From assembly GCA_041664365.1 (NCBI GenBank), contig JBAYKW010000002.1, positions 11,858 through 75,857 of the forward strand: a stretch of 64,000 nucleotides of DNA. The letters are read 5' to 3'. Position numbers and translations under genes: made by a program. The notes beneath the pieces are model-generated. The model was not told where the DNA came from. It made no database searches and was given only the letters and a program-made list of their open reading frames with translations. Positions 2,812 to 50,547 of the stretch are shown here, piece after piece. Numbering within the stretch: the first letter of the stretch is position 1; every line of letters starts with the position of its first letter. The stretch comes from Patescibacteria group bacterium (GTDB lineage: Bacteria > Patescibacteriota > Patescibacteriia > UM-FILTER-42-10).

Positions 2812-3888
2812 ATGAAGACGTACCGACCCTGCGCCGGCGCGATTCCCGAGTCGATTGATACCCGCTACCAGGAGGCGCTGCAGACCAAAGGACTTCGGTA
2901 TGGCATTATCGAAGTCACCACCCGTTGTCAGTGTGCCTGTCCGGGGTGCTATATGGTGCGCCGCAATTTCTTGAACAAAAAGGAGATGTCCCTGTCAGAT
3001 GCAATCCGGATTCTGGATTTGTGCCGTGATTACCGCGGCGCGGAACTGGAAACGATGGACCTCTTAGGCGGGGAGCCGCTGTTGTGGCCGCACCTGCAGG
3101 AGTTCATTGAGGAGCTGCTGCGCCGCGGGATTCTGCCTTGGGTTTTCACCAACATGCTGGCGATCACGCCCGAGCTCGCGCGGTGGTTGCATGAGCACAA
3201 GGTGCATGTTACCGGCAAGCTGAACATCGATCCTTCCGATCCCGCGCAGTATCCGCTGCAGGCGGAGATGCTGGGTCGGGGGATGAATGTGGTGCGGCAA
3301 CTGCTTTCCGCGATCCGGATTTTTCAGGCGGCCGGGTATGAGGACCCACTGTTCCGTTTGCAGAACCTGATCCGCAAACAGAACCTGGAATTTGTGCCGG
3401 GTTACTACAGTTGGTGCCTTGCACAGAAGATCGGCACGGATCTGGAACTGATGGGTTCCGGCGAGCCGATCGGTCCTGACTACTGGCGGATTGCCCCTAA
3501 CCCTAAACAGCTGGCGGGTATGATCCGCAAGATCCAGGCGGTCCGCAAGGAATTCGGCCTGGCGGAAGCCGAGGTACTGATGCCGCACGTGTTCGGCTCC
3601 TGTCCTTTCTACGACAAGGGTCTTTACTTCGCGGCGGACGGGCACATCCGCGCCTGCTCCAACTCTACGGTCCAGCTTTCACAAACCGCCGATCCGGATC
3701 CGATCCGGAAAGCCTATGAGTCACCGCTGATCTGTAGCCGTCTAATGCTTTCGCAGAGTGCGGTTGGGGAACCCTGTGGCAGCTGCAGTAAGTGGGACAA
3801 GTGCCGTGGCGGATGCCGGGCGACGGTGGAAGGTACCGGCGATCCTTTCGGCGGGTACCCGCTATGCCCGGTGCCTTTTCTGGACTGA
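2812..3888 (+). CDS. radical SAM enzyme with a C-terminal SPASM domain (peptide- or protein-modifying maturase family)
   Basis: CX3CX2C cluster motif TTRCQCACPGCY near the N-terminus. C-terminal CGSCSKWDKCRGGC is a Cx2Cx5Cx3C SPASM signature, and there are additional upstream Cys. GGAGG RBS 7 nt before the ATG at 2812. About 60% GC. Confidence 0.7.
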   Translation: MKTYRPCAGAIPESIDTRYQEALQTKGLRYGIIEVTTRCQCACPGCYMVRRNFLNKKEMSLSDAIRILDLCRDYRGAELETMDLLGGEPLLWPHLQEFIEELLRRGILPWVFTNMLAITPELARWLHEHKVHVTGKLNIDPSDPAQYPLQAEMLGRGMNVVRQLLSAIRIFQAAGYEDPLFRLQNLIRKQNLEFVPGYYSWCLAQKIGTDLELMGSGEPIGPDYWRIAPNPKQLAGMIRKIQAVRKEFGLAEAEVLMPHVFGSCPFYDKGLYFAADGHIRACSNSTVQLSQTADPDPIRKAYESPLICSRLMLSQSAVGEPCGSCSKWDKCRGGCRATVEGTGDPFGGYPLCPVPFLD

Positions 3889-3959
3889 CCTTGTGACAAA
3901 AGGTTGGGGCGGAGATTAATTTCTTCGCTCCAACCGCTTTATTTTTTAAATTTAAAGAT

Positions 3960-4415
3960 ATGAGAAAAGATATTCTAAAAATTGCCAATATTAAATTCAA
4001 AGAACTGTCAAAAAAGTACGACGGATTTATCAATGTGGTTATTGATGATTGGCGGGGTTTTCGTTTTGTTTTTGACACGGAAGATGTCCGCAAATGTAAA
4101 AACGACTGCCAGAATTGCCCGTTATTTAAATTACTAAAAGATGAAAAATCAGGATTATTCTCCACAGGATTATACCGGGCAACTAAAGAAGATAAATTAC
4201 TTTTCGGTCCGCAAAATTTTTTAAACTGTAAAACCATTATGCAATATCAAACATGCTATTTGAATTTTTTACAGCAATGCCGGTCGGAGGCTGAAATTAA
4301 GCAGGAATTAGCATTGGTTAAATCAATGAAATTAATTTATTCCAAAGGAAATATTAAAAAAACGGAAGATTTGTTTAAAAAAGAAATATTGTCCAAATAT
4401 CTTGATTTTTTATAG
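3960..4415 (+). CDS. hypothetical 151-aa protein carrying a CX3CX2C motif (CKNDCQNC); possible truncated radical-SAM-like remnant
   Basis: Backbone-type, Lys-rich composition. The motif VRKCKNDCQNCPLF is read directly. Too short for a full radical SAM core. Confidence 0.4.
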   Translation: MRKDILKIANIKFKELSKKYDGFINVVIDDWRGFRFVFDTEDVRKCKNDCQNCPLFKLLKDEKSGLFSTGLYRATKEDKLLFGPQNFLNCKTIMQYQTCYLNFLQQCRSEAEIKQELALVKSMKLIYSKGNIKKTEDLFKKEILSKYLDFL

Positions 4416-4477: not shown

Positions 4478-5836
4478 GTGATCATCAAGCGTTACGCACT
4501 GCTTCCGATGCGAGAACTTTGGCTCCGGGAAGAGAGCAAGTTCGAGCACTGGCTGGATGTTGAGCTAGCGGTTCTGCGCGCACGCGAACATTTGGGGATG
4601 GCACCTAAAGGTGCGTATATGAGCGTCCTCAAGCATGCTGCGTTCACTGTGGACAGGATCGCGGAGATCGAGGCGGAAGTGGATCACGACCTGATCGCTT
4701 TCGTCACCAACGTCCGCGAGTCGCTCGAAGCGGCCGGTATCGGCCATTTGTGTTCGGAAATCCATAAGGAGATTACGAGCTACGACGTGGAGGATCCGGC
4801 GCTGATTCTGATGCTCCGCAAGGCGGTCCATCTGGACATCAACGCGCTGAGATCGCTGGAACAGTCCTTACGGAGGAAGGCGCAGGAACACCAGTGGACC
4901 TGGATGATCATGCGCACGCACGGACAGTTCGCCGAACCTTCCACCTTCGGCCATCTTCTGCTGGTGTTTGCCGAAGAAATCCGGCGATGCATCGTCAAGC
5001 TCGAGACTCCGATGAACACTGATCTGTCCGAGGGGAAGATCTCCGGCGCGGTCGGCAGTTTCGCCGGCATTAGGCCAGCCGTGGAGCAGATTGCGCTGGA
5101 AGTGCTGGGTTTGATGCCTGCCAAGGCGGAAACCCAGATCCTACAGCGTGACCGTCACGCTGCGCTACTCTGCACGTTGGCAGTCTGCGGAGGAGTGATC
5201 GAGCAGATCGCAAAGACCTTCTGGGTGATGATGCGCAGCGAGGTGCGCGAACTCCGTGAACCGCGCAAGCCGAAGCAGAAGGGTTCCTCGGCGATGCCGG
5301 GCAAGCGCAATCCGATCCTGACGGAACGGCTCATGGGCATGTCCCGTCTGCTCCGTGCGGATGCAATGTGTGCGCTGGAGAACATCGCCACTTTCGAGGG
5401 ACGGGAAATCTCCCAGTCCAGTGTGGAACGCCACATCTTCGCGCGGTCAACGACGCTCGTTCACTACATGGCCATTAAGCTGGCCGGAATGGTGGACAGT
5501 CTCGAAGTTTTTCCGGAGCAGATGCTTCATAACCTGAAGGAGGAGTCACTCGGAGTGTGGGCCGGACAGCGGGTCCGTCATGCACTGGAGGAGGCGGGGA
5601 CTCACCACGAAGTGGCCTACCGCTACATTCAGGCGTGTTCGTTCCAGGCCGAGGCCGAACGGACGCATCTGCGAGACGTACTGCGCAGAACGTTGATTTG
5701 GGATGTTGTGGAAGACAGCGATGACGATCGTAGCGCCGAGGATCGGCTGGGTCGGAATGGTCTCAGGGCATGCTTCGACCACGAAGCCTATGCCACGGCC
5801 GGCATCGAACACATCTTCTCCCGCCAGACGGCGTAG
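4478..5836 (+). CDS. purB: adenylosuccinate lyase-like enzyme (fumarate-lyase superfamily, PurB-type)
   Basis: N-terminus VIIKRYALLPMRELWLREESKFEHWLDVELAVLRA parallels the PurB N-terminus (MIERYxxPEMxxIW..E.KFxxWL.VE). Fumarate-lyase signature GSSAMPGKRNP. GAGGAGG RBS before the GTG at 4478; the ATG at 4433 is an alternative start. About 60% GC. Confidence 0.65.
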   Translation: MIIKRYALLPMRELWLREESKFEHWLDVELAVLRAREHLGMAPKGAYMSVLKHAAFTVDRIAEIEAEVDHDLIAFVTNVRESLEAAGIGHLCSEIHKEITSYDVEDPALILMLRKAVHLDINALRSLEQSLRRKAQEHQWTWMIMRTHGQFAEPSTFGHLLLVFAEEIRRCIVKLETPMNTDLSEGKISGAVGSFAGIRPAVEQIALEVLGLMPAKAETQILQRDRHAALLCTLAVCGGVIEQIAKTFWVMMRSEVRELREPRKPKQKGSSAMPGKRNPILTERLMGMSRLLRADAMCALENIATFEGREISQSSVERHIFARSTTLVHYMAIKLAGMVDSLEVFPEQMLHNLKEESLGVWAGQRVRHALEEAGTHHEVAYRYIQACSFQAEAERTHLRDVLRRTLIWDVVEDSDDDRSAEDRLGRNGLRACFDHEAYATAGIEHIFSRQTA

Positions 5837-5904
5837 TTTGCACATTTCTTGGGTTCCGGGATCTGATCACAGATCTTAATGGGCCCTTTTTTATTTGGTT
5901 GAGT

Positions 5905-5990
5905 TGAGGGGATAGGGTTTTCCGCCTGAGGCGGATCAGCCTTGGGCTGAAGGGGATAGGGGTTAGGGGATAGGGTTTGGAAACTAGCAA
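5905..5990 (+). repeat. G-rich telomere-like repeat block (GGGGATAGGG / TTAGGGG units) with an internal CCGCC-tga-GGCGG hairpin
   Basis: tgaggggatagggttttccgcctgaggcggatcagccttgggctgaaggggataggggttaggggatagggtttgg read directly. A related block lies at 30273-30317. Confidence 0.8.
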
Positions 5991-6189
5991 TTGGTAATCT
6001 CTAATTCTAAACTCTTTATTCTTAAAATAGGCTAAAGCTTTTTTCTACAACCAAACGTGTAACGTCGCTTATTTTCAGCCGATAAATATAAACGAGTATT
6101 GTATCGTTCCGTGTTTTATTTTATTAGGATTTTTTGGCTAATTATAAGTAGACTTTTTAATCTTCAAGAAAGGTGTATAATATAAATCC

Positions 6190-23897: not shown

Positions 23898-24366
23898 ATT
23901 TTTTGGGATTTTTTAAAAATTCTTTTTTACAACCCGAAGCGCAGAAATAATAAGCGGTTCTTTTATAATATCCGGAAAAAGCCGTGTGCCTTGGTAATAC
24001 TTTCATTTTGCAAACGGGGTCAATGAATTCCGGAACAGCCGGTAGGGCAGAGTGGTTAATTACCGTTTTTTCCTGTGTCCGGTCGGCAAGGATTCTTTGA
24101 ATGGAATCCAGCACCTTAATAAATTCGGGGTGGGAGATGCAATATTTTATTTCTTTGCCGTTCCGCTCAGTAACTACTACACCCTCGCGGCGCAGTACCT
24201 GCAGATGCTGACTGATGTTGGCCTGGCTGATTCCGGTCATTTTTTTCATTTCCGACACGGTCAGGCAGTGACTACGCAAAAGCTGCATTATTTCAATGCG
24301 TTTAGTGTTTTTTATCGCCTCGATTAATCGGGCGTATTGCGTGTAATTAATGTTAGACATATTCAT
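23890..24366 (-). CDS. ArsR-family HTH metalloregulator fused to a C-terminal YHS/TRASH copper-binding domain
   Basis: [33 protein letters not shown] followed by DPVCKMKV...YYFCASGC, which is YHS-like. First gene of the divergent cop operon. Confidence 0.65.
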
Positions 24367-24406
24367 AGTTTTGAATATATCATCACATTAAATCTCTGTC
24401 AAATGG

Positions 24407-24436
24407 GGTAGCTTGGGTGACGTCACCCAAGCTACC
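24407..24436. promoter_or_regulatory. perfect 30-bp palindrome (15-bp arms) in the divergent intergenic region between the cop regulator and the purA-like gene
   Basis: GGTAGCTTGGGTGAC|GTCACCCAAGCTACC read directly. A TTGACT-17-TAAGAT promoter for the purA-like gene follows at about 24445-24473. Confidence 0.6.
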
Positions 24437-24517
24437 CACTGCGTTTGACTCAATTCAGATGTTTTTGTAAGATGATAGACCGTTTTAGTGAGGATTTTCG
24501 GACCAGGGGAGGGTTAT

Positions 24518-25867
24518 ATGCCTATCGACACGATTTGTGGTCTCCAACGGGGAGACGAAGGCAAGGGCGCGATCGTTGATCGCAAACTGGCCTCAGGTAA
24601 GTACACCTGGAATGTCCGTTTCCAGGGAGGTGCCAACGCTGGCCACACTGTGAAGGCTGGTGGAAAGAAGTTGATTCTGCACCAAATCCCTTCTGGCGTC
24701 ATGCACGAGCGGGTCAGGCTGGGCCTCGGTCAGGGCATGATTATCGATCCGTTCGGTCTCCGCGATGAAGTCGAACAGCTTCGGGTTATGGACATCGATG
24801 CGACGGCGCGACTGTGTGTTTCTTCCGGTGCCAAGATCGTCTGTCCGTGGGACAAGCTCCTGGACGGCGCGATCGATCGCGTGCGAGCCAAGGCTATGGG
24901 CATGCAGGTCGCGGAGGGCGGCGGCGTCGGTACTACCAACCGCGGGATCGGTCCCGGCTATGCTAATGCGGTGTCACGGGACGGCATCACGGTGGCGCAG
25001 CTGGTCCGGCCGAACGTGCTCTTCAATCGGATCAAAGTCGTGGTCCCGGTGATCAACTGCATGATCCGCGGTGTGCGCCAGGAGCTGGATTTATCGGAAG
25101 AGCAGCTACCGGAGTACACTGTTTCCGGTGCGTTTGAACAGCTCGCTCCGATCGGCGAATGGATGTCGCTGATTGCGTATCCGCTGCATGAACTGCTGCG
25201 GGTTGCACTTATGGAAGGTGAATTCTTACTCGCAGAGGGCGGACAGGGTTATTTCCTGTCCAACGACTGCACTGTGAGCTATCCCAGCTGCACTTCCTCG
25301 ATCACGACGGCCAACGCCGTTTTCTCGGGGCTCGGACTCGAACTGCGAAGAAGCTGGATCGGTAGCACGATCGGCGTGGTCAAGGCGTACCAGACGGCAG
25401 TGGGTAATCATCCGATGCCCACCTACATCGGCAACGAGTACCAGGAGCGTATCCAGCGGATCGGTGGCGAAATCGGCGCGTCGACCGGCCGGATACGTGA
25501 CTGCTGCTGGCTGAACGGTTTGGAGCTTCGCGAGGCTGCTCAGTTTTGCGACGTGATCTACGTCACCAAGCTGGATGTGCTGTCCGGGATTCCGCTGATT
25601 CCGATCGCAACCGCCCTGCATCCTGACAACCATGCTCCGAATCATCCAGTGCTGACCGATCTCCCGCAAACCTGGGAGGAGTACATGCTCTGCCAGCCGA
25701 TCTACGGCATCAACGTGACCGGCTGGAACGAGGACATCTCCGGCATTCGCAGGATTGCCGACTTGCCGAGCAGTGCGCAGGAATACTTGGCTACGATTGC
25801 CAAGATTGCGTCCAGGATGGTCATCTGCGTCGGTGTCGGTCCTGAACGCGAGCAGTTCTGCGTTTAG
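24518..25867 (+). CDS. purA: adenylosuccinate synthetase family protein (PurA-like; substrate specificity not resolved)
   Basis: GLQRGDEGKGAIVD (P-loop, catalytic Asp), RFQGGANAGHTV (catalytic His retained, first His replaced by Ala), GTTNRGIGPGY, GASTGRIRDCCWLN, TKLDVL. GGGGAGGG RBS before the ATG at 24518. About 62% GC. Confidence 0.7.
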   Translation: MPIDTICGLQRGDEGKGAIVDRKLASGKYTWNVRFQGGANAGHTVKAGGKKLILHQIPSGVMHERVRLGLGQGMIIDPFGLRDEVEQLRVMDIDATARLCVSSGAKIVCPWDKLLDGAIDRVRAKAMGMQVAEGGGVGTTNRGIGPGYANAVSRDGITVAQLVRPNVLFNRIKVVVPVINCMIRGVRQELDLSEEQLPEYTVSGAFEQLAPIGEWMSLIAYPLHELLRVALMEGEFLLAEGGQGYFLSNDCTVSYPSCTSSITTANAVFSGLGLELRRSWIGSTIGVVKAYQTAVGNHPMPTYIGNEYQERIQRIGGEIGASTGRIRDCCWLNGLELREAAQFCDVIYVTKLDVLSGIPLIPIATALHPDNHAPNHPVLTDLPQTWEEYMLCQPIYGINVTGWNEDISGIRRIADLPSSAQEYLATIAKIASRMVICVGVGPEREQFCV

Positions 25868-26155
25868 CAGCTCTTTTGGGAGGTAGTGGGGAGTGTATGC
25901 ACAAGCATCCTTCCCATTTTTTTATTCAAAAGTATTCTTAACTGCCGAAAACTATAATTTATTTGGTTTCTGAAGATGCACTTTATGGGACTTTTTTAAA
26001 GCTATTTGACATTGAATTATGGATAGGAGTATTATAAATCCACGTAAACAAAAACCAAAAAAAATTAGAAACCTTCGCAGCTATGGGGTTATTTTTTTCC
26101 GCCCATTTTACAAAAATACGTTTAAAAATGTGAAAAGTGGGGAGTTTTGACAGAT

Positions 26156-30317: not shown

Positions 30318-30329
30318 TTGAAAACATAA

Positions 30330-30527
30330 TATTAAACTGGAATAGTACCAGGGAACACCGGTGTAAATCCGGGGCAGTCCCGCTACTGTAATCTCAGGGC
30401 ATTTTTTTAGAAAATGTACTGGGAAAGTCAGAATACTGGTATATTCAAAATTAATTCTTTCTCCGCGGATAGGGAAAGAGGTAAAACTGCCGATTTTGCC
30501 TTCCTGTCCTAGGAAGGTTTTTTAATA
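30330..30527 (+). ncRNA. cobalamin (AdoCbl) riboswitch with a terminator-type expression platform
   Basis: cAGGGAAcaccGGTGtAAATCCggggcagtcccGCTACTGTAA matches the conserved core and B12-box of the cobalamin riboswitch consensus. Downstream hairpin GCCTTCCTGTCCTAGGAAGG plus TTTTTT lies 30 nt before the 30557 gene. Confidence 0.7.
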
Positions 30528-31853: not shown

Positions 31854-33647
31854 ATGAATTCGTTCAACAAGTTCGGCCAAGCTCGGTGGTATGCGATGGT
31901 CTTCATCGGCGTGATTACCGCTGCGCAGGTGGTTAGGGGCAACTGGTTCGGTTTCGTGGAAGGTCTGTTGTCGATGGGAATCATGGCCGTCATGATGTGG
32001 GTGTGGCTGCCGATCTTCATCCGACAGCTGGCCGACCAGTACCTTTTCTTCTTGCGGGCGAAGGAAATGCGCGCCTACATGATTGAGAAGGACGGAAAGT
32101 TGGTCCGGCTCATCATCGCGGTACTGGCAAAGGACCGTCCGCGGTTCGAGGTGCTCAAGATGGAACAAGAAGCAAGGGGAATCCGGGTTGACCTGGTTGA
32201 CCCTTCGAGCTCCTTGTATTACATCGGAGTGCCTTGGAAGTTCAAGGCCAAGTTTTGGTTTGAGTATCCGGCGGACGAAACGTCTCCCGAATTGCATCCC
32301 CAGTACTCGATGATTCTTTCTGAAAGGACCATCGATTACCAAGCGCCCGAAGTGCCCACGGCGGACTTCATTGAGATCACTGCCAAGCTGGTGATCTCAT
32401 TGATTGTGGTGAATCCGCTCAAAGCAGTTTATGGCGTTAACCATTACATGGAGGCAGTGATCTTCCTGATCAACTCCAGGTGGCGTAGGGTTGCCACTAC
32501 TCTGCACTTCTTCTACTACGGAGAGGATGCAGAGGCGCCAAAGGATCTCAATACGGTGCTCTCCAGACTGGAGACACTAAAGAGAGATCCGGAAATCTAT
32601 CAGAAGGCTCACGGAGCACTGCTGGTGGATCTCTGGCTGGCCGGGCGCTGTCAGAAGTACAAGGTCGCTGTCGGGGAAGATGGCAATCCCAAAGCAATTG
32701 CTGACGGGAGGCCGGAACCTCGATACTGGAACGTCCAGGACTCCAAGGTAATGGATGGCACGGAGACTTTCGGAGGAAATGTCTACAACGTCTATGGAGA
32801 CTTTGAAGGCAGATTCTTCTATGTTCGCGAAGAAGCGGATGAAAGCCTCGTGCTGATGTGTGGTAAGGAAGGAGAATCCCCGATTTCATTCGTCGAAAGC
32901 GACCGTAGCAAGGTCGTGGTCAGACCGGAACAGCGCGTGCTGTTTCTGTTTACCAAGTCGGGAGATTCTTGGGATGGGGTCCGTGCCTACTTCAAGTACG
33001 GGATTCCCGCCGACAAGCCGGCTCGTCGGCTAGTCATACACTTCGGTGTCTTCCCGAAAGACGTCGAAATACAAGACATCGGCACCCAGCGCAATATCAA
33101 GGAGGCCCTGGAAAAGCCCGCTATTGCCATTGCCAATGCTCTTGCTGCCAGGCAAGAAGCAGAAGGAATGAAAGCGGTCAAGGTTCTTGAAGCAGAAGGG
33201 GAAAAGCAGGCCAAGATCCTTCAGGGTGAAGGTGAAGAGAAGCGTTTGTCCTCTGTGGGCGCAGGCGAGGGCACAGCGAAGCGCCTGGTTGGTGAAGGAG
33301 AAGGCGCGGCAGTGCTTGCGGTCCACAAGGGACACGCCGATGGTTTCGCCGCTCAAATGGCGGCGCTTGGAATCAAACCGGGCGAGGCGGCTGCCTTGTC
33401 TATGTTGAGTGCCGAAGCAGTGCGTCAAATGGCAATTTCTGCTAAGCAGCTCACTGTTATAGGGGCTGAAGGCATTAACAACCTATTTGGCGTTGTGCCG
33501 GCTCTTGCGCAGCTCTGGAACAGAGAAGGGAACACTCCCTCTGAAGCTGATGTGATCAAAGTATTGTCCGGCCTTAGCGTGGCTGAACGACAGTCCGTGT
33601 TCGATGCGTTGCCCAGAACCAATAGTGGTGAGGACAGCGTTTCCTAA
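31854..33647 (+). CDS. SPFH/band-7 domain protein with a flotillin-type C-terminal coiled/EA-repeat region and a central insertion of about 200 aa
   Basis: N-terminal TM helices. Band-7 block DFIEITAKLVISLIVVNPLKAVYGVNHYMEAVIFLINSRWRRVATT fits the SPFH pattern D..ka.y.v.ny..av..l..t.lR. The C-terminus (KEALEKPAIAIANALAARQEAEGMKAVKVLEAEGEKQAKIL...AAALSMLSAEAVRQMAISAKQLTVIGAEG) resembles flotillin/YqiK tails. AAGGAG RBS. About 60% GC. Confidence 0.6.
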   Translation: MNSFNKFGQARWYAMVFIGVITAAQVVRGNWFGFVEGLLSMGIMAVMMWVWLPIFIRQLADQYLFFLRAKEMRAYMIEKDGKLVRLIIAVLAKDRPRFEVLKMEQEARGIRVDLVDPSSSLYYIGVPWKFKAKFWFEYPADETSPELHPQYSMILSERTIDYQAPEVPTADFIEITAKLVISLIVVNPLKAVYGVNHYMEAVIFLINSRWRRVATTLHFFYYGEDAEAPKDLNTVLSRLETLKRDPEIYQKAHGALLVDLWLAGRCQKYKVAVGEDGNPKAIADGRPEPRYWNVQDSKVMDGTETFGGNVYNVYGDFEGRFFYVREEADESLVLMCGKEGESPISFVESDRSKVVVRPEQRVLFLFTKSGDSWDGVRAYFKYGIPADKPARRLVIHFGVFPKDVEIQDIGTQRNIKEALEKPAIAIANALAARQEAEGMKAVKVLEAEGEKQAKILQGEGEEKRLSSVGAGEGTAKRLVGEGEGAAVLAVHKGHADGFAAQMAALGIKPGEAAALSMLSAEAVRQMAISAKQLTVIGAEGINNLFGVVPALAQLWNREGNTPSEADVIKVLSGLSVAERQSVFDALPRTNSGEDSVS

Positions 33648-33664
33648 ATTCGTGGAGGTGTGTC

Positions 33665-34768
33665 GTGGACATTCTGCTTCTCATAGTTCTTCTGCTGGCA
33701 TTTGGTGCGTATTCCCTGAATTCCTGGTTCAGGAAACGCAACGGCACCAGCACTCAACGCAGAGTAACGAGTAGTTCGAGACTGCTCTTCCCAACCATCG
33801 CGCTCATCGTGATCGCGGTGATCGGACACTACGTCTTTCACTGGAAGGTGGGTAGCGCCATCTTCCTCATCATCCTGACTGCTGCGGTGGTCGGTGGTAT
33901 CTGGTGGTTCCGGCGCAAACCGGCCTACTCCCGTTTCGGTGGTAAGCCGTTCGGTACGTTCGTCGGTAACAATATCAAACTCATCGGATGGCTCGTGTTC
34001 CACGTGGCCTTCTGGTGCGTGGTCGCAAACATGGACGGCAACTGGGACTACGTCAAGGAGTGGTGGTGGGGTAAGTACAGCTTGTTTCTGTACCCCATGC
34101 ACTTGATCTACATCACGCGCGGCAGCTTTCCGGACGTGGTCACAGGGAAGTACACTTTCCCGAACAGGATCACGAAGTGGGCATTCACATTCCTGTTCAT
34201 TCTGATGCTGTATGCACCGTTCTGCCACGTTACTCAGCGCGAGTCGATCCTGAGCCGATACGCGGGCTTCAACGAGTCCGGTTCGGCGCACTACAACATT
34301 CCGGGTCGGCAGTCGCCTGACTCGGACGAACTTCAGCGCGGGCAGTTCAATATCAACGTCACGCCGGAAGGACGTGACGCGAACGGTCTCGTGAAGAAGA
34401 TGAGGGTTGGCACTTTGCCGGCCGGTACCACGTGGATCCAGACCTGGAATATCAGTGGTCGGGTCTACACCAAATATCTGATCTATCAGTGGATCGGCGA
34501 CCGGCTGAAAGTCTACGACAAGATCCTCGTTGACAACAATCAGTTGGCTTCGCCGGACACCGATGGCGATGGCTTCTTGACCGTCAGCCAGAGTCCGTTG
34601 ATGCTCATGCTGGGTGCCGACGGGAAGACGGGGTGGAAGATCGTCAATTCCGAGCGGTACGAATTCGCACCCCTGGCTCAGGATACCGAGGTATTTGTCC
34701 TGATCTACTCCGATCAGGAGAGACCCGGTACTGGAGGCGTCAGCTTCCATCTGCGGTCAGGAATCTGA
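33665..34768 (+). CDS. GC-rich polytopic membrane protein (about 6 TM) with a C-terminal soluble beta-rich domain; operon partner of the SPFH protein
   Basis: Hydrophobic helices (LLLIVLLLAFGAY, LLFPTIALIVIAVIGHYVF, AIFLIILTAAVVGGIWWF, IGWLVFHVAFWCVV...). Begins 17 bp after the upstream stop. A strong terminator follows. Confidence 0.5.
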   Translation: MDILLLIVLLLAFGAYSLNSWFRKRNGTSTQRRVTSSSRLLFPTIALIVIAVIGHYVFHWKVGSAIFLIILTAAVVGGIWWFRRKPAYSRFGGKPFGTFVGNNIKLIGWLVFHVAFWCVVANMDGNWDYVKEWWWGKYSLFLYPMHLIYITRGSFPDVVTGKYTFPNRITKWAFTFLFILMLYAPFCHVTQRESILSRYAGFNESGSAHYNIPGRQSPDSDELQRGQFNINVTPEGRDANGLVKKMRVGTLPAGTTWIQTWNISGRVYTKYLIYQWIGDRLKVYDKILVDNNQLASPDTDGDGFLTVSQSPLMLMLGADGKTGWKIVNSERYEFAPLAQDTEVFVLIYSDQERPGTGGVSFHLRSGI

Positions 34769-34805
34769 TATGTACATTTCCTGGGTGGCCCCATGCACAG
34801 TGTCT

Positions 34806-34862
34806 TACAAACGCTCGTGCATGGACCACCCTTTTTTCTTACAAAAAAAACTGTTTTCAGTG
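34806..34862 (+). terminator. rho-independent terminator
   Basis: GGTGGCCCCATGCAC...GTGCATGGACCACC long hairpin followed by CTTTTTTCTT. Confidence 0.6.
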
Positions 34863-34997
34863 CATTAATTGAATTTTGTTTGAATTAAATATTGGGGCCC
34901 CCGACGAGCGTAGCTCGGTGGGGAAAGGGGTATAGACTCGAAACTAAAATAATCGAGTTTATAACTCGATTATGACAGTGGAGAGTCTAATGACCCG

Positions 34998-35074
34998 TGG
35001 TAGCAGGGGAGAGGTTCGAACTCTCGACCTCGGGCTTATGAGTCCCGCGCTCTAACCAGCTGAGCTACCCTGCC
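34998..35074 (-). tRNA. tRNA-Met (CAT), elongator-type
   Basis: Minus-strand cloverleaf GGCAGGG-TA-GCTC.AGCTGGTTA.GAGC...CTCATAA...GAGAG.TTCGAAC.CTCTC-CCCTGCT-A-CCA. G1-U72 pairs, CCA encoded. Confidence 0.75.
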
Positions 35075-35377
35075 GCGTCCTTTTTATGCTTCAGGTTTCG
35101 TACTTCCCGCTTTGCGGGAACTACTTCACCTTTCGCATAAAAACTCCTTTCCTCGCAAAGGCGTGCTCGTCGAGCTTACGCTCTCCTGCGCTACTCCTTT
35201 GCTCGGGTTTTTATTCTTTATATTTTATGACTTGTGTGCTTCTATAACACTCGGTTGGTTTTGAGTTTAATTGGGGCCCCCGACGAGCAAAGCTCGGTGG
35301 GGAAAGGGGCATAATGCGTAGGGTGAAGTGAATGCAATAATTTGCAGACACGGAACCCGAAGCATTTAAATGACCCT

Positions 35378-35453
35378 TGGTTGCGGGGGGCGGACTCGAA
35401 CCGCCGACCTCCAGGTTATGAGCCTGACGAGCTGACCACTGCTCTACCCCGCG
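35378..35453 (-). tRNA. tRNA-Met (CAT), initiator-like (C1xA72 mismatch)
   Basis: CGCGGGG-TA-GAGC.AGTGGTCA.GCTC...CAGG.CTCATAA.CCTG...GGCGG.TTCGAGT.CCGCC-CCCCGCA-A-CCA. An unpaired C1/A72 and GG/CC pairs next to the anticodon loop suggest tRNA-fMet. Confidence 0.65.
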
Positions 35454-35818
35454 TCGAGTGATCGCGAACTGCGACCTACATTTGTCCGGAACTGATGTTC
35501 CGAACAAATTCCGATCTCCGTTCGCGTCCCTCTCTCCTCGCAAAGGCGTGCTCGTCGAGCTCACGCTCTCCTGCGCTACTCCTTTGCTCGGGTTTTATAT
35601 TCTATGCCTTATGCGCTTCCAATTTACTCGTTAGAATTTTTATTGTTAATATGCTACCGCAGTTTAGCCTAAATATATTATTTTGGCAAGTTTCATAGTG
35701 TATATCGTAAAATGGGGTCCCCGACGAGCAAAGCTCGGTGTGGAGAGGGACACAAATGTGAAAGGTGAAGTGAATGCAATAATTTGCAGACACGGAACCT
35801 AAAACATTTGATGACCCG

Positions 35819-35905
35819 TGGTACCGGGAGAGAGACTTGAACTCTCATGATGTTGCCATCACTGGATTTTGAGTCCAGCGCGTCTGCCAGTTCCGCCATC
35901 CCGGC
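35819..35905 (-). tRNA. tRNA-Leu (CAA) with a long variable arm
   Basis: GCCGGGA-TG-GCGG.AACTGGCAGA.CGC...CTGGA.CTCAAAA.TCCAG-TGATGGCAACATCATG-AGAG.TTCAAGT.CTCT-CTCCCGGT-A-CCA read from the minus strand. Confidence 0.75.
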
Positions 35906-35912
35906 TTGATTT
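35888..35912. repeat. 25-bp direct repeat DR1 (the tRNA-Leu 5' end plus 7 nt of upstream flank)
   Basis: cagttccgccatcccggcttgattt. Identical to 36280-36304 except that the preceding base differs. Confidence 0.8.
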
Positions 35913-35913
35913 A

Positions 35914-36168
35914 CTATATGTTCGATAATGTGTTTCTGAGCAATGCTCTTAATGATTTCTTTCCTTTACTGGTTTTAAAGTAGCGTTCTCTTTTTTCAGC
36001 ATCTTCTTTATTATTGAACATTTCATAGAAAATAATCTTAACAGGTAATCTATGTTTAGTAAAAGTGCTTTTACCCTGCCTATGTTCTTTTAAACGTCTT
36101 TCAAGGTTATTAGTAATACCTGCATAAAGTTGCTTATTGGATAAAAGCAAAATATAAACAGAAAACAT
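35914..36168 (-). CDS. small GIY-YIG nuclease-domain protein (UPF0213/YhbQ-like, 84 aa)
   Basis: MFSVYILLLSNKQLYAGITNNLERRLKEHRQGKSTFTKHRLPVKIIFYEMFNNKEDAEKRERYFK carries the GIY-YIG core (VYIL...YAGIT.NLERRL.EH...E). AT-rich. Lies between the two 25-bp direct repeats. Confidence 0.65.
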   Translation of the reverse strand: MFSVYILLLSNKQLYAGITNNLERRLKEHRQGKSTFTKHRLPVKIIFYEMFNNKEDAEKRERYFKTSKGKKSLRALLRNTLSNI

Positions 36169-36279
36169 GTTGATATTGTATTACGGATTATTAAATAACA
36201 ATGATTAGTAAATAGTAATTTCCGCCATCTCGTACCACACAGGGTACGTGATAGCCATGAACCCTTTAGTGGTTCATGG

Positions 36280-36304
36280 CAGTTCCGCCATCCCGGCTTG
36301 ATTT
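36280..36304. repeat. 25-bp direct repeat DR2 (an orphan copy of the tRNA-Leu 5' end), preceded by a perfect hairpin GCCATGAACC-ctttagt-GGTTCATGGC
   Basis: ggttcatggCAGTTCCGCCATCCCGGCTTGATTTgaaaca read directly. Confidence 0.8.
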
Positions 36305-36365
36305 GAAACAGATATTACAAATATCTTTATCTCATACACTAGTCTAAATGGAATACAGCTTTCCT

Positions 36366-36403
36366 GTCAACCTCGTTAGAGAAAAACTCTCTAACGGGGT
36401 CAA
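36366..36403. promoter_or_regulatory. palindromic intergenic element (copy 2) upstream of the parA promoter
   Basis: gtcaacctcgttagagaaaaactctctaacggggtcaa. A TATAAT sits at about 36451 before parA. Confidence 0.55.
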
Positions 36404-36481
36404 CTGGTTTAATTGGTAGTGGCAATATCTGTAAAAATTGGTATAATATAAAAGTTATATAACAATAAAGAGTATCTTTTA

Positions 36482-37246
36482 ATGGCTCGAATTATTTCGT
36501 TAGTAAATCAGAAAGGTGGTGTTGGTAAAACAACCACTGCGGTCAATCTCGGAGCATATCTGGCGCAAATGGGCCGTTTTGTTTTGTTGGTGGATATTGA
36601 TCCGCAGGGTAATGCATCTTCAGGTGTGGGAGTCGAAATGAGAAAGGTCCAAAAAGGTGTTTATGAAGCAATTATCAACCAAGCTTCTTTTCGGGATATC
36701 ACGCAACATACTCAAATTGATGGATACAAAGTAGCTCCGGCAACCATGTCACTAGCCGGTGCCAATATTGAACTGGTGCCTTTTGAGCAGAGAGAGTACC
36801 GGTTGCATAATAGTTTGATGGAGATAAAGCACGATTTTGATTACATAATAATTGATTGTCCACCAAGTCTGGGTCTTTTGACTATTAACGGGTTGGTGGC
36901 AGCCGATGAAATATTAATCCCGGTCCAAAGTGAATACTATGCGCTGGAAGGATTGGGCCATCTGCTTAATACCGTGAATTTGATTAAGGAGAATCTGAAA
37001 CCGGATTTAAAAATATTGGGTGCGGTCTTAACAATGTATGACCGGAGATATCAGTTGTCTCAGGAGGTAATGAACGAATTATACAAATTCTTCCCGGATA
37101 AAATATTCCGCTCGGTTATACCGCGTAATGTAAGACTGGCGGAAGCCCCGTCTTTTGGTGAGTCAATTCTAACCTACGATCCAAAATCAAAAGGCGCGAA
37201 AGCTTATGAGCGTTTGGCGCGTGAAATTATTGATACAGAAAATTAA
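36482..37246 (+). CDS. parA: chromosome partitioning ATPase ParA/Soj
   Basis: Deviant Walker A NQKGGVGKTTTAVNLGAYLA and ParA-family blocks (LLVDIDPQGNAS, IIIDCPPSLGLLT). Confidence 0.85.
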   Translation: MARIISLVNQKGGVGKTTTAVNLGAYLAQMGRFVLLVDIDPQGNASSGVGVEMRKVQKGVYEAIINQASFRDITQHTQIDGYKVAPATMSLAGANIELVPFEQREYRLHNSLMEIKHDFDYIIIDCPPSLGLLTINGLVAADEILIPVQSEYYALEGLGHLLNTVNLIKENLKPDLKILGAVLTMYDRRYQLSQEVMNELYKFFPDKIFRSVIPRNVRLAEAPSFGESILTYDPKSKGAKAYERLAREIIDTEN

Positions 37247-50292: not shown

Positions 50293-50367
50293 GTCCCGTT
50301 AGCTTAATGGCAGAGCAGCTGACATCTCAATCAGCCGATCGGGGTTCGAGTCCTCGACGGGGCACCA
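50293..50367 (+). tRNA. tRNA-like gene with an 8-nt anticodon loop (CATCTCAA); anticodon unresolved (CTC or TCT possible)
   Basis: GTCCCGT-TA-GCTT.AATGGCA.GAGC-A-GCTGA.CATCTCAA.TCAGC-CGAT-CGGGG.TTCGAGT.CCTCG-ACGGGGC-A-CCA. The cloverleaf is otherwise good. Confidence 0.5.
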
Positions 50368-50476: not shown

Positions 50477-50547
50477 GCCAGCGTAGTTCAGCTTGAAGAA
50501 CACTTGATCTGTTTTCAAGAGTTCGTCAAACTCCTCCGCTGGCACCA
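50477..50547 (+). other. tRNA-like fragment or pseudogene (71 nt, ends in CCA; no regular T-arm)
   Basis: GCCAGCG-TA-GTTC.AGCTTGAA.GAAC-A-CTTGA.TCTGTTT.TCAAG-...-CGCTGGC-A-CCA. The acceptor, D-arm and anticodon arm are tRNA-like, but the region between anticodon arm and acceptor is too short. Confidence 0.35.

Follow-up and report, generated by a model that had tools for sequence, protein, structure and literature searches.

The tRNA-Leu(CAA) locus

The 64,000-nucleotide (nt) stretch of DNA analyzed here (hereafter the window) comes from a Patescibacteria group bacterium (NCBI GenBank assembly GCA_041664365.1, contig JBAYKW010000002.1, positions 11,858–75,857). Adjoining a parA gene, it carries a small GIY-YIG nuclease gene that is enclosed between two copies of the 5′ end of a tRNA-Leu(CAA) gene. 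The best explanation of this repeat, in our view, is that it brackets a selfish cassette of approximately 390 base pairs (bp), which the Patescibacteria genome carries inside the transcription unit of its tRNA-Leu(CAA).

The repeat is the 25-mer CAGTTCCGCCATCCCGGCTTGATTT, of which the 64-kb window has two exact copies, at 35888–35912 and 36280–36304; 100 dinucleotide shuffles produced zero matches to it at ≤3 mismatches. With one mismatch the repeat lengthens to 28 bp, and the additional 3 bp look like a chance likeness between tRNA nt 19–21 and the first bases of a hairpin. ARAGORN and Rfam (RF00005, 54.9 bits) both place the functional tRNA-Leu(CAA) at 35819–35905 on the minus strand, and therefore the first copy (direct repeat 1 [DR1], 35888–35912, minus strand) consists of tRNA nt 1–18 and 7 nt of leader, just as a preliminary description of the locus had proposed. 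The orphan copy reported in the same description (DR2, 36280–36304, minus strand) is also present, although it is an exact repeat and not a ‘near-identical’ one; it is made up of the leader AAATCAA (36298–36304) and tRNA-Leu nt 1–18 (36280–36297). Between the copies we recovered everything that had been described there, namely an 84-amino-acid (aa) GIY-YIG open reading frame (ORF) and two hairpins. The GIY-YIG gene is the sole ORF of the interval, which holds no recombinase gene.

All features of the locus lie on the minus strand and are given here in that direction. A promoter-like motif (TTGACA-18 nt-TAGACT, 36341–36370), identified by a consensus scan only, is located upstream of DR2 and is kept in two related loci, L001 and L081 (loci in other genomes carry the prefix L). 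It is presumably the resident tRNA-Leu promoter, now reading into the orphan fragment, the hairpins, the GIY-YIG gene, and the tRNA; the same scan of the window found no promoter-like site between the GIY-YIG gene and tRNA-Leu. DR2 ends exactly where a module of two hairpins starts, a layout that recurs in L001–L007, L011, L012, and L168. The first hairpin (36254–36280; G CCATGAACC ACTAAAG GGTTCATGG C) is situated inside a match to a covariance model of the module (36224–36282, 72.8 bits), and the second (36227–36252) has the core CGTACC CTGTGT GGTACG and a stem that can be extended to 10 pairs with one mismatch. The loop of this second hairpin is mutated in the window relative to L001, where it reads CTTTAGT, the reverse complement of the first hairpin's loop. 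The TG and GCGGAA that come next (36220–36227), both comprised in a third, partial copy of the repeat (36220–36232), we read by analogy with other loci, and from a match at 6 of 8 positions, as the second copy of a target dinucleotide and a remnant of tRNA nt 19–24 (GCAGAC) with two substitutions. An AT-rich 5′ untranslated spacer of 51 nt (36169–36219), which has diverged between the window and L001 while the module has not, separates the module from the start codon of the nuclease gene (35914–36168). DR1 begins 1 nt past the nuclease stop codon, and the 3′ end of the tRNA-Leu and its downstream flank are syntenic with L001 and L081. As we interpret this anatomy, the cassette consists of three components: the two-hairpin module, placed behind G18 with a TG duplication, the nuclease gene, and a second leader with tRNA nt 1–18. 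This last component completes a working tRNA.

We rejected the possibility that the 25-bp repeat is a target duplication of fixed stagger, because its upstream end varies between loci, reaching from 0 to at least 19 nt into the leader. The true insertion point is marked by the hairpin module with its own 2-nt duplication, and the 5′ copy adjoining the gene could be either element-borne or made by repair. A group I intron is excluded as well, as an Rfam E-value search of positions 34800–36500 gives three tRNAs only; under both gathering and E-value thresholds, Rfam has no family but tRNA in the cassette.

Between parA and the orphan fragment there is also an inverted repeat with 20-nt arms (36363–36407), conserved in L001, that overlaps the −35 hexamer of the promoter-like site. 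It may be an operator of divergent parA and tRNA promoters.

A bare GIY-YIG catalytic domain

The 84-aa ORF matches the Pfam GIY-YIG family (PF01541; E = 2.4e-16; score of 60.2 bits, cut-off of 22.6), and a set of 18 sequences shows little or no variation at residues Y5, Y15, R24/R25, H29, and E61. The catalytic-domain match and the conserved Tyr, Tyr, Arg, His, and Glu place it in the GIY-YIG superfamily. The preliminary description had asked whether the protein belongs with homing endonucleases or with YhbQ/Slx1-like proteins, and profile, model score, and fold all favor the latter. Specifically, a profile of 18 relatives searched against PDB finds BH0048 (1zg2; E = 1.7e-12) and EF2693 (1ywl; E = 3.3e-12), followed by SLX1 (E of about 3e-3) and I-TevI (E of only 0.35). 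Foldseek ranks structures in the same way when queried with an AlphaFold (AF2) model with a predicted local distance difference test score of 93.8 (Slx1, template modeling score of 0.64 and root-mean-square deviation of 2.0 Å; I-TevI, weaker). The nearest relatives in both sequence and fold are therefore of the UPF0213/Slx1-like clade, no additional domain is present, and the protein is best described as a bare catalytic domain of the YhbQ/UPF0213/Slx1 clade. An I-TevI-type homing endonuclease, the Seg proteins included, was rejected as a classification: the protein has 84 aa and the catalytic domain alone, and it scores 19.5 bits against the I-TevI-type model TIGR01453, whose cut-off is 56.05.

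An identical 84-aa protein is annotated in a metagenome-assembled genome of Patescibacteria. Searches with PADLOC and PHROGs gave weak matches only, confined to the GIY-YIG domain, and phage and plasmid collections yielded distant homologs only (36–44 per cent identity), with no tRNA beside those that were inspected. A phage-borne origin was rejected because the 2.9 million viral contigs of IMG/VR contain no relatives of the protein.

Slx1 cuts branched and stem-loop DNA; unlike the 84-aa protein, it requires Slx4 and a RING domain. Bacterial UPF0213 proteins, such as YhbQ and YazA, differ from the cassette protein in that no mobile-element role has been assigned to them and no tRNA linkage appears in the records checked. 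By analogy, structure-specific cleavage of branched or hairpin DNA could connect the protein to the hairpin module, a link that is only suggestive.

Recurrence beside tRNA genes

In a scan that took one genome per species, 385 relatives of the protein were confirmed; the loci of the best 80 were fetched, which makes 81 with the window. A same-strand tRNA lies within 450 nt in 66 of these 81 loci, from several phyla, where by our own estimate chance would account for a few per cent. The order is constant: a tRNA or tRNA fragment is followed by the hairpin module and then by the GIY-YIG gene, in one orientation.

Two layouts can be distinguished. In the first, the GIY-YIG gene ends 0–20 nt before the 5′ end of a tRNA, and in 25 such loci the 5′ part of the tRNA is copied upstream of the gene as an exact repeat no shorter than 12 nt. 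The repeat stops in the D loop in 12 of them (in tRNA-Leu, typically at G18), in the anticodon loop in 7, and in the T loop after GGTTCG in 6. It matches the local tRNA, be it one of four tRNA-Leu isoacceptors or a tRNA for Gln, Asn, Ser, Tyr, Ala, or Cys, with the exception of L009 and L021, in which the orphan differs from the adjacent tRNA. In the second layout, the gene is located 20–250 nt past a tRNA 3′ end; in 16 such loci the hairpins start right at that end, after the discriminator base, and no repeat is needed because the tRNA stays whole. Interruption of the tRNA sequence thus occurs at four fixed points: behind G18, within the anticodon loop, behind nt 57 in the T loop, or behind the discriminator base. 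Wherever a loop is interrupted, an intact tRNA copy is found 3′ of the nuclease gene.

A search for further copies next to tRNA 5′ ends, suggested in the preliminary description, thus turned up GIY-YIG relatives 0–20 nt upstream of tRNAs in dozens of genomes, flanked by exact repeats of the 5′ part of their own tRNA and with the hairpin pair abutting the orphan. Together with the empty sites described below, these copies support the interpretation that the element inserted into a tRNA gene. The alternative, that a housekeeping UPF0213 gene was passively trapped by a chance duplication of a tRNA 5′ end, draws on the fact that the UPF0213 clade includes genes with no tRNA link (Bacillus subtilis yazA and the phage homologs). 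It fails because the same architecture recurs at 12 or more tRNA species, at four tRNA positions, and in several phyla. Moreover, dozens of unrelated loci combine tRNA fragment, module, and gene, the end of the repeat coincides exactly with the start of a conserved and covarying module, and syntenic empty and occupied sites exist. We consider this alternative hardly credible.

The hairpin module and composite elements

Wherever an orphan copy is seen, it stops at a hairpin pair of the type CCNTGNACC-loop-GGTNCANGG, in which the second hairpin has the first one's core in reverse complement. The pair is conserved and covarying, with compensatory changes in 12 of 20 base pairs among 14 sequences. 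A covariance model built from the tRNA-Leu clade (threshold, E < 0.01) identifies the module in 50 sources, with one match in the window, almost always either within some 150 nt on the 5′ side of the gene or just past a tRNA; it finds no module in empty loci. Past the module, the tRNA sequence resumes for 4–12 nt, and in 12 of about 15 loci it does so exactly 2 nt before the interruption (TG, CG, or TA). The spacer between the hairpins is the reverse complement of the duplicated dinucleotide. The module therefore acts like a short insert that enters a tRNA loop and duplicates 2 nt of its target.

Copies of the module without the gene occur in L002, L004, L010, L038, and L048, the last with two in one dead tRNA fragment. 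Taken alone, the module accordingly has the attributes of a miniature inverted-repeat transposable element (MITE): inverted repeats, a 2-nt duplication, and gene-less copies. It is amplified in tandem in L038, as are units of orphan plus module in L004. We also considered a rule by which the remnant always keeps the 3′ strand of the targeted tRNA arm and rejected it, because the remnant often spans just 1–4 of the 5 stem bases. In L002, two gene-less modules follow a tRNA-Gly(TCC) at 2008–2340, each abutting a fragment that runs from the T loop to the 3′ end; the inner fragments derive from a foreign tRNA-Gly, because their variant CCCCC T stem is unable to pair with the local tRNA.

A fuller arrangement, with no exact repeat, is found in L062, L014/L172, L010, and L048. 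Here, the 5′ half of a tRNA (nt 1–36) is followed by a module, a short remnant, the nuclease gene, and then a different, complete tRNA; after this foreign tRNA, which has the same anticodon, come a short remnant, a second module, and the 3′ half. The acceptor strands of the two L062 halves are perfectly complementary, and joining the halves in silico restores a tRNA-Leu(CAA) in both L062 and L014. The 5′ halves in these composite loci look decayed. The composite elements, from module through gene and tRNA to module, are flanked by a CA duplication, and the inner flanks of both modules repeat the local target for 6–12 nt.

Such features raise the question of whether the module is itself a miniature transposon, or a transposon end, that moves by cut-and-paste through ‘restriction-ligation’. 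The nuclease would cut the module borders and YR dinucleotides in tRNA loops, and host ligase would join the 2-nt ends; two modules would mobilize the nuclease gene and the tRNA between them, and the repeat in the window would be the recognition context of the right-hand cut. Such a mechanism would account for a 2-nt duplication that flanks the module and not the whole cassette, for a second hairpin that, as an inverted copy of the first, resembles terminal inverted repeats, for the module-only insertions (the two in the dead tRNA fragment of L048 and the gene-less ones in L002 and L010), and for the CA duplication around composite elements. It would also suit the 2-nt 3′ overhangs that GIY-YIG homing and restriction enzymes leave. 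However, the nuclease gene usually lies outside the module, with one module per cassette; the 6–12-nt target repeats at the inner flanks look like products of homology-directed copying, not ligation; modules are few per genome sample, with one in the 64-kb window; and a hydrolytic nuclease is unable to rejoin DNA itself. We therefore regard cut-and-paste transposition as unlikely.

Empty and occupied sites

The Uhrbacteria locus L172 adjoins parA, as does the cassette of the window, and provides a direct comparison of empty and occupied sites within the family. In L175 and L179, whose ParA proteins are 79 and 77 per cent identical to that of L172, the gene order is kept, there is no cassette, and an intact tRNA-Leu(CAA) lies 92 nt (L175) and 158 nt (L179) from parA. 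The intact tRNA of L175 shares its variable arm with the two L172 halves and is clearly their ortholog, and the working tRNA inside the L172 element is foreign.

In the lineage of the window, three loci with the same order of parA and tRNA-Leu(CAA) are empty and have an intact tRNA (L082–L084; ParA identity of 55–60 per cent), and two are occupied at the D loop (L001 at 93 per cent and L012 at 66 per cent ParA identity). As expected of a homing gene, the cassette is hence present in some genomes and missing from related ones (L172 and L014 vs L175 and L179; the window vs L082–L084). In a further relative, L081 (ParA identity of 92 per cent), the resident tRNA has been cut down to a 10-nt 5′ piece and a 3′ piece, which flank a foreign tRNA-Leu(CAA) and a decayed hairpin of the T-loop type, with no nuclease gene. 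The same tRNA gene has thus been struck independently in its D, anticodon, and T loops.

Some loci contain additional insertions or fragments. L084 has a 150-nt insertion with no nuclease gene about 150 nt downstream of its tRNA-Leu(CAA) (2196–2280), followed by a duplicated tRNA 3′ fragment (AACTCCCACCTCGGGCAC), which looks like another small tRNA-restoring element. An ORF with a faint LAGLIDADG match (L179/L180, 522–1358) begins 7 nt past the same tRNA-Leu(CAA) in an ‘empty’ relative and suggests that the locus attracts different nuclease genes. In L168, a gene for a 150-aa SpoU/TrmL-like methyltransferase (1946–2398) is located directly upstream of the cassette, and an orphan 5′ half of tRNA-Lys(CTT) precedes a complete tRNA-Lys downstream (2852–2948), with no nuclease gene.

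Selection on the gene and the module

The ORF is intact in 79 of the 81 loci, and ratios of nonsynonymous to synonymous substitution rates (dN/dS) in close pairs are 0.02 (window vs L001), 0.04, and 0.21, the nuclease being under strong purifying selection. The non-coding part is constrained too: between the window and L001 (dS of 0.28), the orphan, module, and remnant differ at 2 of 78 columns, vs 9 of 23 in the leader just upstream. In syntenic pairs (the window and L012, L002 and L003, L004 and L011), the orphan changes jointly with the 5′ part of the functional tRNA, and the 7-nt leader part of the repeat in the window is absent from L001. These two observations indicate repeated conversion, re-insertion, or selection.

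An orphan that is constrained, varies in concert with the tRNA, lies behind a conserved promoter, and stops right at the module could also be the guide of an RNA-guided nuclease. In that case, a transcript from the tRNA promoter would supply the orphan as guide and the hairpins as scaffold, and matching tRNA genes would be cut where homology ends. A guide would suit a protein that has no DNA-binding domain of any kind, and in composite loci, where the module-adjacent fragment differs from the tRNA of the element, it would confer self-immunity. We find this very doubtful, chiefly on account of the 16 or more loci whose module comes after a complete and folded tRNA, which leaves no free guide. 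In addition, a guide of the type in the window would match the cell's own tRNA gene, and the 5′ halves in composite loci look decayed. A comparison of mismatches in the module stems, intended to separate an RNA from a DNA role of the hairpins, gave no significant G-U bias (12 G-U [G-T] vs 7 A-C; P-value = 0.36) and is compatible with either role. We know of no GIY-YIG enzyme that is RNA-guided. Were one at work here, it would add a new RNA-guided DNA nuclease, unrelated to Cas9, Cas12, TnpB, and IscB and by a wide margin the smallest of all.

A proposed homing cassette in tRNA genes

We favor, with a probability of roughly 60 per cent, the reading that the locus carries a homing-type selfish cassette that targets tRNA genes; its nuclease activity, target, and current mobility are inferred. 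Under this model, the nuclease would cut a tRNA-gene loop of a cassette-free allele with the 2-nt stagger typical of GIY-YIG enzymes, and the break would be mended by copying from the occupied allele. Homology arms would be provided by tRNA sequence, with the orphan 5′ fragment on the left and the intact tRNA body on the right; because the arms are tRNA sequence, the cassette could enter the same tRNA gene in any genome and the tRNA would be regenerated. The fuller element would bring a whole replacement tRNA between two modules and so split the resident gene. Recombination of the tRNA in such an element with the resident 3′ half could have left the form in the window, which could also have arisen through homing on arms of tRNA origin. 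The nuclease gene would be driven by the resident tRNA promoter and thus co-transcribed with the tRNA. Recombination between the two repeats would excise the cassette precisely, and the product of such recombination, constructed in silico, is a normal tRNA. Cycles of loss and re-entry, or gene conversion, would keep both repeats identical.

Several observations weigh against this model. The protein is a bare 84-aa catalytic domain and has no DNA-binding domain, so site specificity is unaccounted for. Immunity of the occupied allele is not evident from the sequence, because the intact tRNA copy keeps the presumed target site, and simple homing would not lead one to expect the tRNA remnant of 4–12 nt found between module and gene. 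Nuclease function is, for all family members, assigned by sequence. The empty-site comparison proposed in the preliminary description found empty relatives in both lineages (L082–L084; L175 and L179) but no clean empty site in a close relative of the window genome: a ParA-based metagenome scan found one close relative only, L081, which is rearranged rather than empty, and an exact look-up of the window ParA gave no record. There is also no sign of recent movement, because identical GIY-YIG proteins were seen in one genomic context only, and all 24 of the 24 contigs with an identical Uhrbacteria ParA are occupied, with no presence/absence polymorphism. An apparent cassette-free allele, L174, proved to be a gene-calling difference, its DNA being identical. 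The cassette has, moreover, been retained at parA/tRNA-Leu(CAA) down to a ParA identity of 66 per cent (window vs L012). Such long retention combined with purifying selection would be unusual for a pure homing gene and would also fit a benefit to the host.

The last points can be taken further. The cassette could be an old insertion that is now immobile and vertically inherited in a tRNA operon as a domesticated nuclease, whose benefit might be break-induced repair or amplification of tRNA genes, as with the phage nuclease SegB (see below), or attack on foreign DNA with tRNA-like attachment sites. Retention at the same locus over deep divergence (the window, L001, and L012; L002 and L003; L004 and L011), dN/dS of 0.02–0.04, fixation in 24 of 24 contigs, absence from the 2.9 million viral contigs, the tandem amplifications in L004 (orphan plus module) and L038 (module), and the SegB precedent are all in line with domestication. 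What makes it improbable in our judgment is that the cassette occupies many tRNA species at four insertion positions, that the same tRNA gene was struck independently in close relatives (window vs L081), that resident tRNAs were destroyed and replaced, and that many relatives with the same gene order have no cassette; the PADLOC defense models, too, match weakly and in the GIY-YIG domain only.

If the homing model holds, a large family of UPF0213-like or ‘GIY-YIG nuclease family’ proteins of no known function would gain a testable role in a minimal tRNA-parasitic element. The element would survive in an essential gene by a 5′ duplication or a whole replacement tRNA, unlike introns, which rely on splicing, or islands, which restore the 3′ part, and the route through a whole replacement tRNA could make the host dependent on the element. 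It would also explain why genomes of Patescibacteria, Planctomycetota, Omnitrophota, and others contain orphan tRNA fragments, foreign tRNA alleles, and split tRNA genes, features that can mislead tRNA annotation and phylogeny. Should an 84-aa protein be confirmed to cut tRNA-gene loops with a 2-nt stagger, it would interest enzymologists and could serve as a tool.

Comparison with known systems

The family spans several phyla and appears to be undescribed; full-text literature searches, whose coverage of subscription journals is thin, returned no description of it. Its nearest functional precedent is SegB, a free-standing GIY-YIG homing endonuclease of phages T4 and T6 that cuts within tRNA genes at RAWTSGAAC, the reverse complement of the T-loop consensus (PMC13096335). 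SegB is statistically associated with tRNAs and yields recombination-dependent duplications of tRNA genes (PMC13096335). The likeness consists in a GIY-YIG nuclease gene among tRNA genes. SegB, however, belongs to the I-TevI-type clade and is a phage protein of far greater size that includes DNA-binding parts, and no hairpin module, tRNA fragment with a defined break, or residence in a bacterial chromosome is reported for it.

A 2006 survey of the superfamily described an Slx1-like domain fused to a TrmH-like tRNA G18 methyltransferase and suggested a link of that fusion to RNA metabolism (PMC1564403). G18 is also the nucleotide that precedes the insertion point in the window, a coincidence of possible interest.

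Genomic islands and prophages that integrate into tRNA genes enter at anticodon-loop or T-loop sublocations, and an element-borne copy restores the gene and leaves direct repeats. These islands are kilobases long, use tyrosine or serine recombinases, and restore the 3′ part of the tRNA. The cassettes, in contrast, measure 0.4–0.6 kb, have no recombinase, supply the 5′ part or a whole tRNA, and, across the family, also use the D loop and the discriminator position. We therefore rejected a recombinase-mediated integrative element, as the only ORF of the cassette encodes a GIY-YIG protein and the duplicated part is the 5′ one.

REPIN/RAYT systems and other MITEs share with the cassette paired inverted hairpin-forming repeats, a single nuclease or transposase gene, non-autonomous copies, and short target duplications. 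RAYTs, however, are HUH tyrosine transposases, and REPINs are numerous and intergenic, whereas here the protein is GIY-YIG and the copies are few, all of those seen being in tRNA sequence. As the associated protein is not an HUH (Y1) transposase, the cassette was not assigned to REPIN/RAYT. Group I introns are likewise selfish insertions in the anticodon loop of tRNA-Leu, for example in cyanobacteria, and can carry a GIY-YIG gene. They depend on a ribozyme and RNA splicing, whereas in the cassette a second DNA copy preserves tRNA function.

Other features of the window

The tRNA-Leu(CAA) gene is one of three minus-strand tRNA genes associated with repeat units of approximately 380–440 bp (34891–35809), one tRNA to each (tRNA-Met at 34998–35074, tRNA-Met at 35378–35453, and tRNA-Leu at 35819–35905). 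Behind each of these tRNAs come conserved GC-rich trailer blocks that could form hairpins and have no Rfam match; L081 has kept the trailer behind its tRNA-Leu as well.

Within a second tRNA cluster (Glu-?-Arg-Pro), the tRNA at 50293–50367 has an 8-nt anticodon loop. ARAGORN lists it as ‘tRNA-???’ with the anticodon tctc and Rfam calls it a tRNA; it may be frameshift-suppressor-like or otherwise unusual. Between tRNA-Arg and tRNA-Pro there is a further tRNA-like sequence of 71 nt (50477–50547; GCCAGCG...CGCTGGCACCA) that is reported by neither ARAGORN nor Rfam at the gathering score.

Islands of 52–58 per cent GC stand out in this genome of about 41 per cent GC (1–1000, 3001–4000, 5001–6000, 24001–26000, and 32001–35000) and may be foreign DNA; the island at 33644–34768 has long ORFs on both strands. 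Lastly, an adenosylcobalamin (AdoCbl; B12) riboswitch is located at 30324–30487 (57.3 bits).

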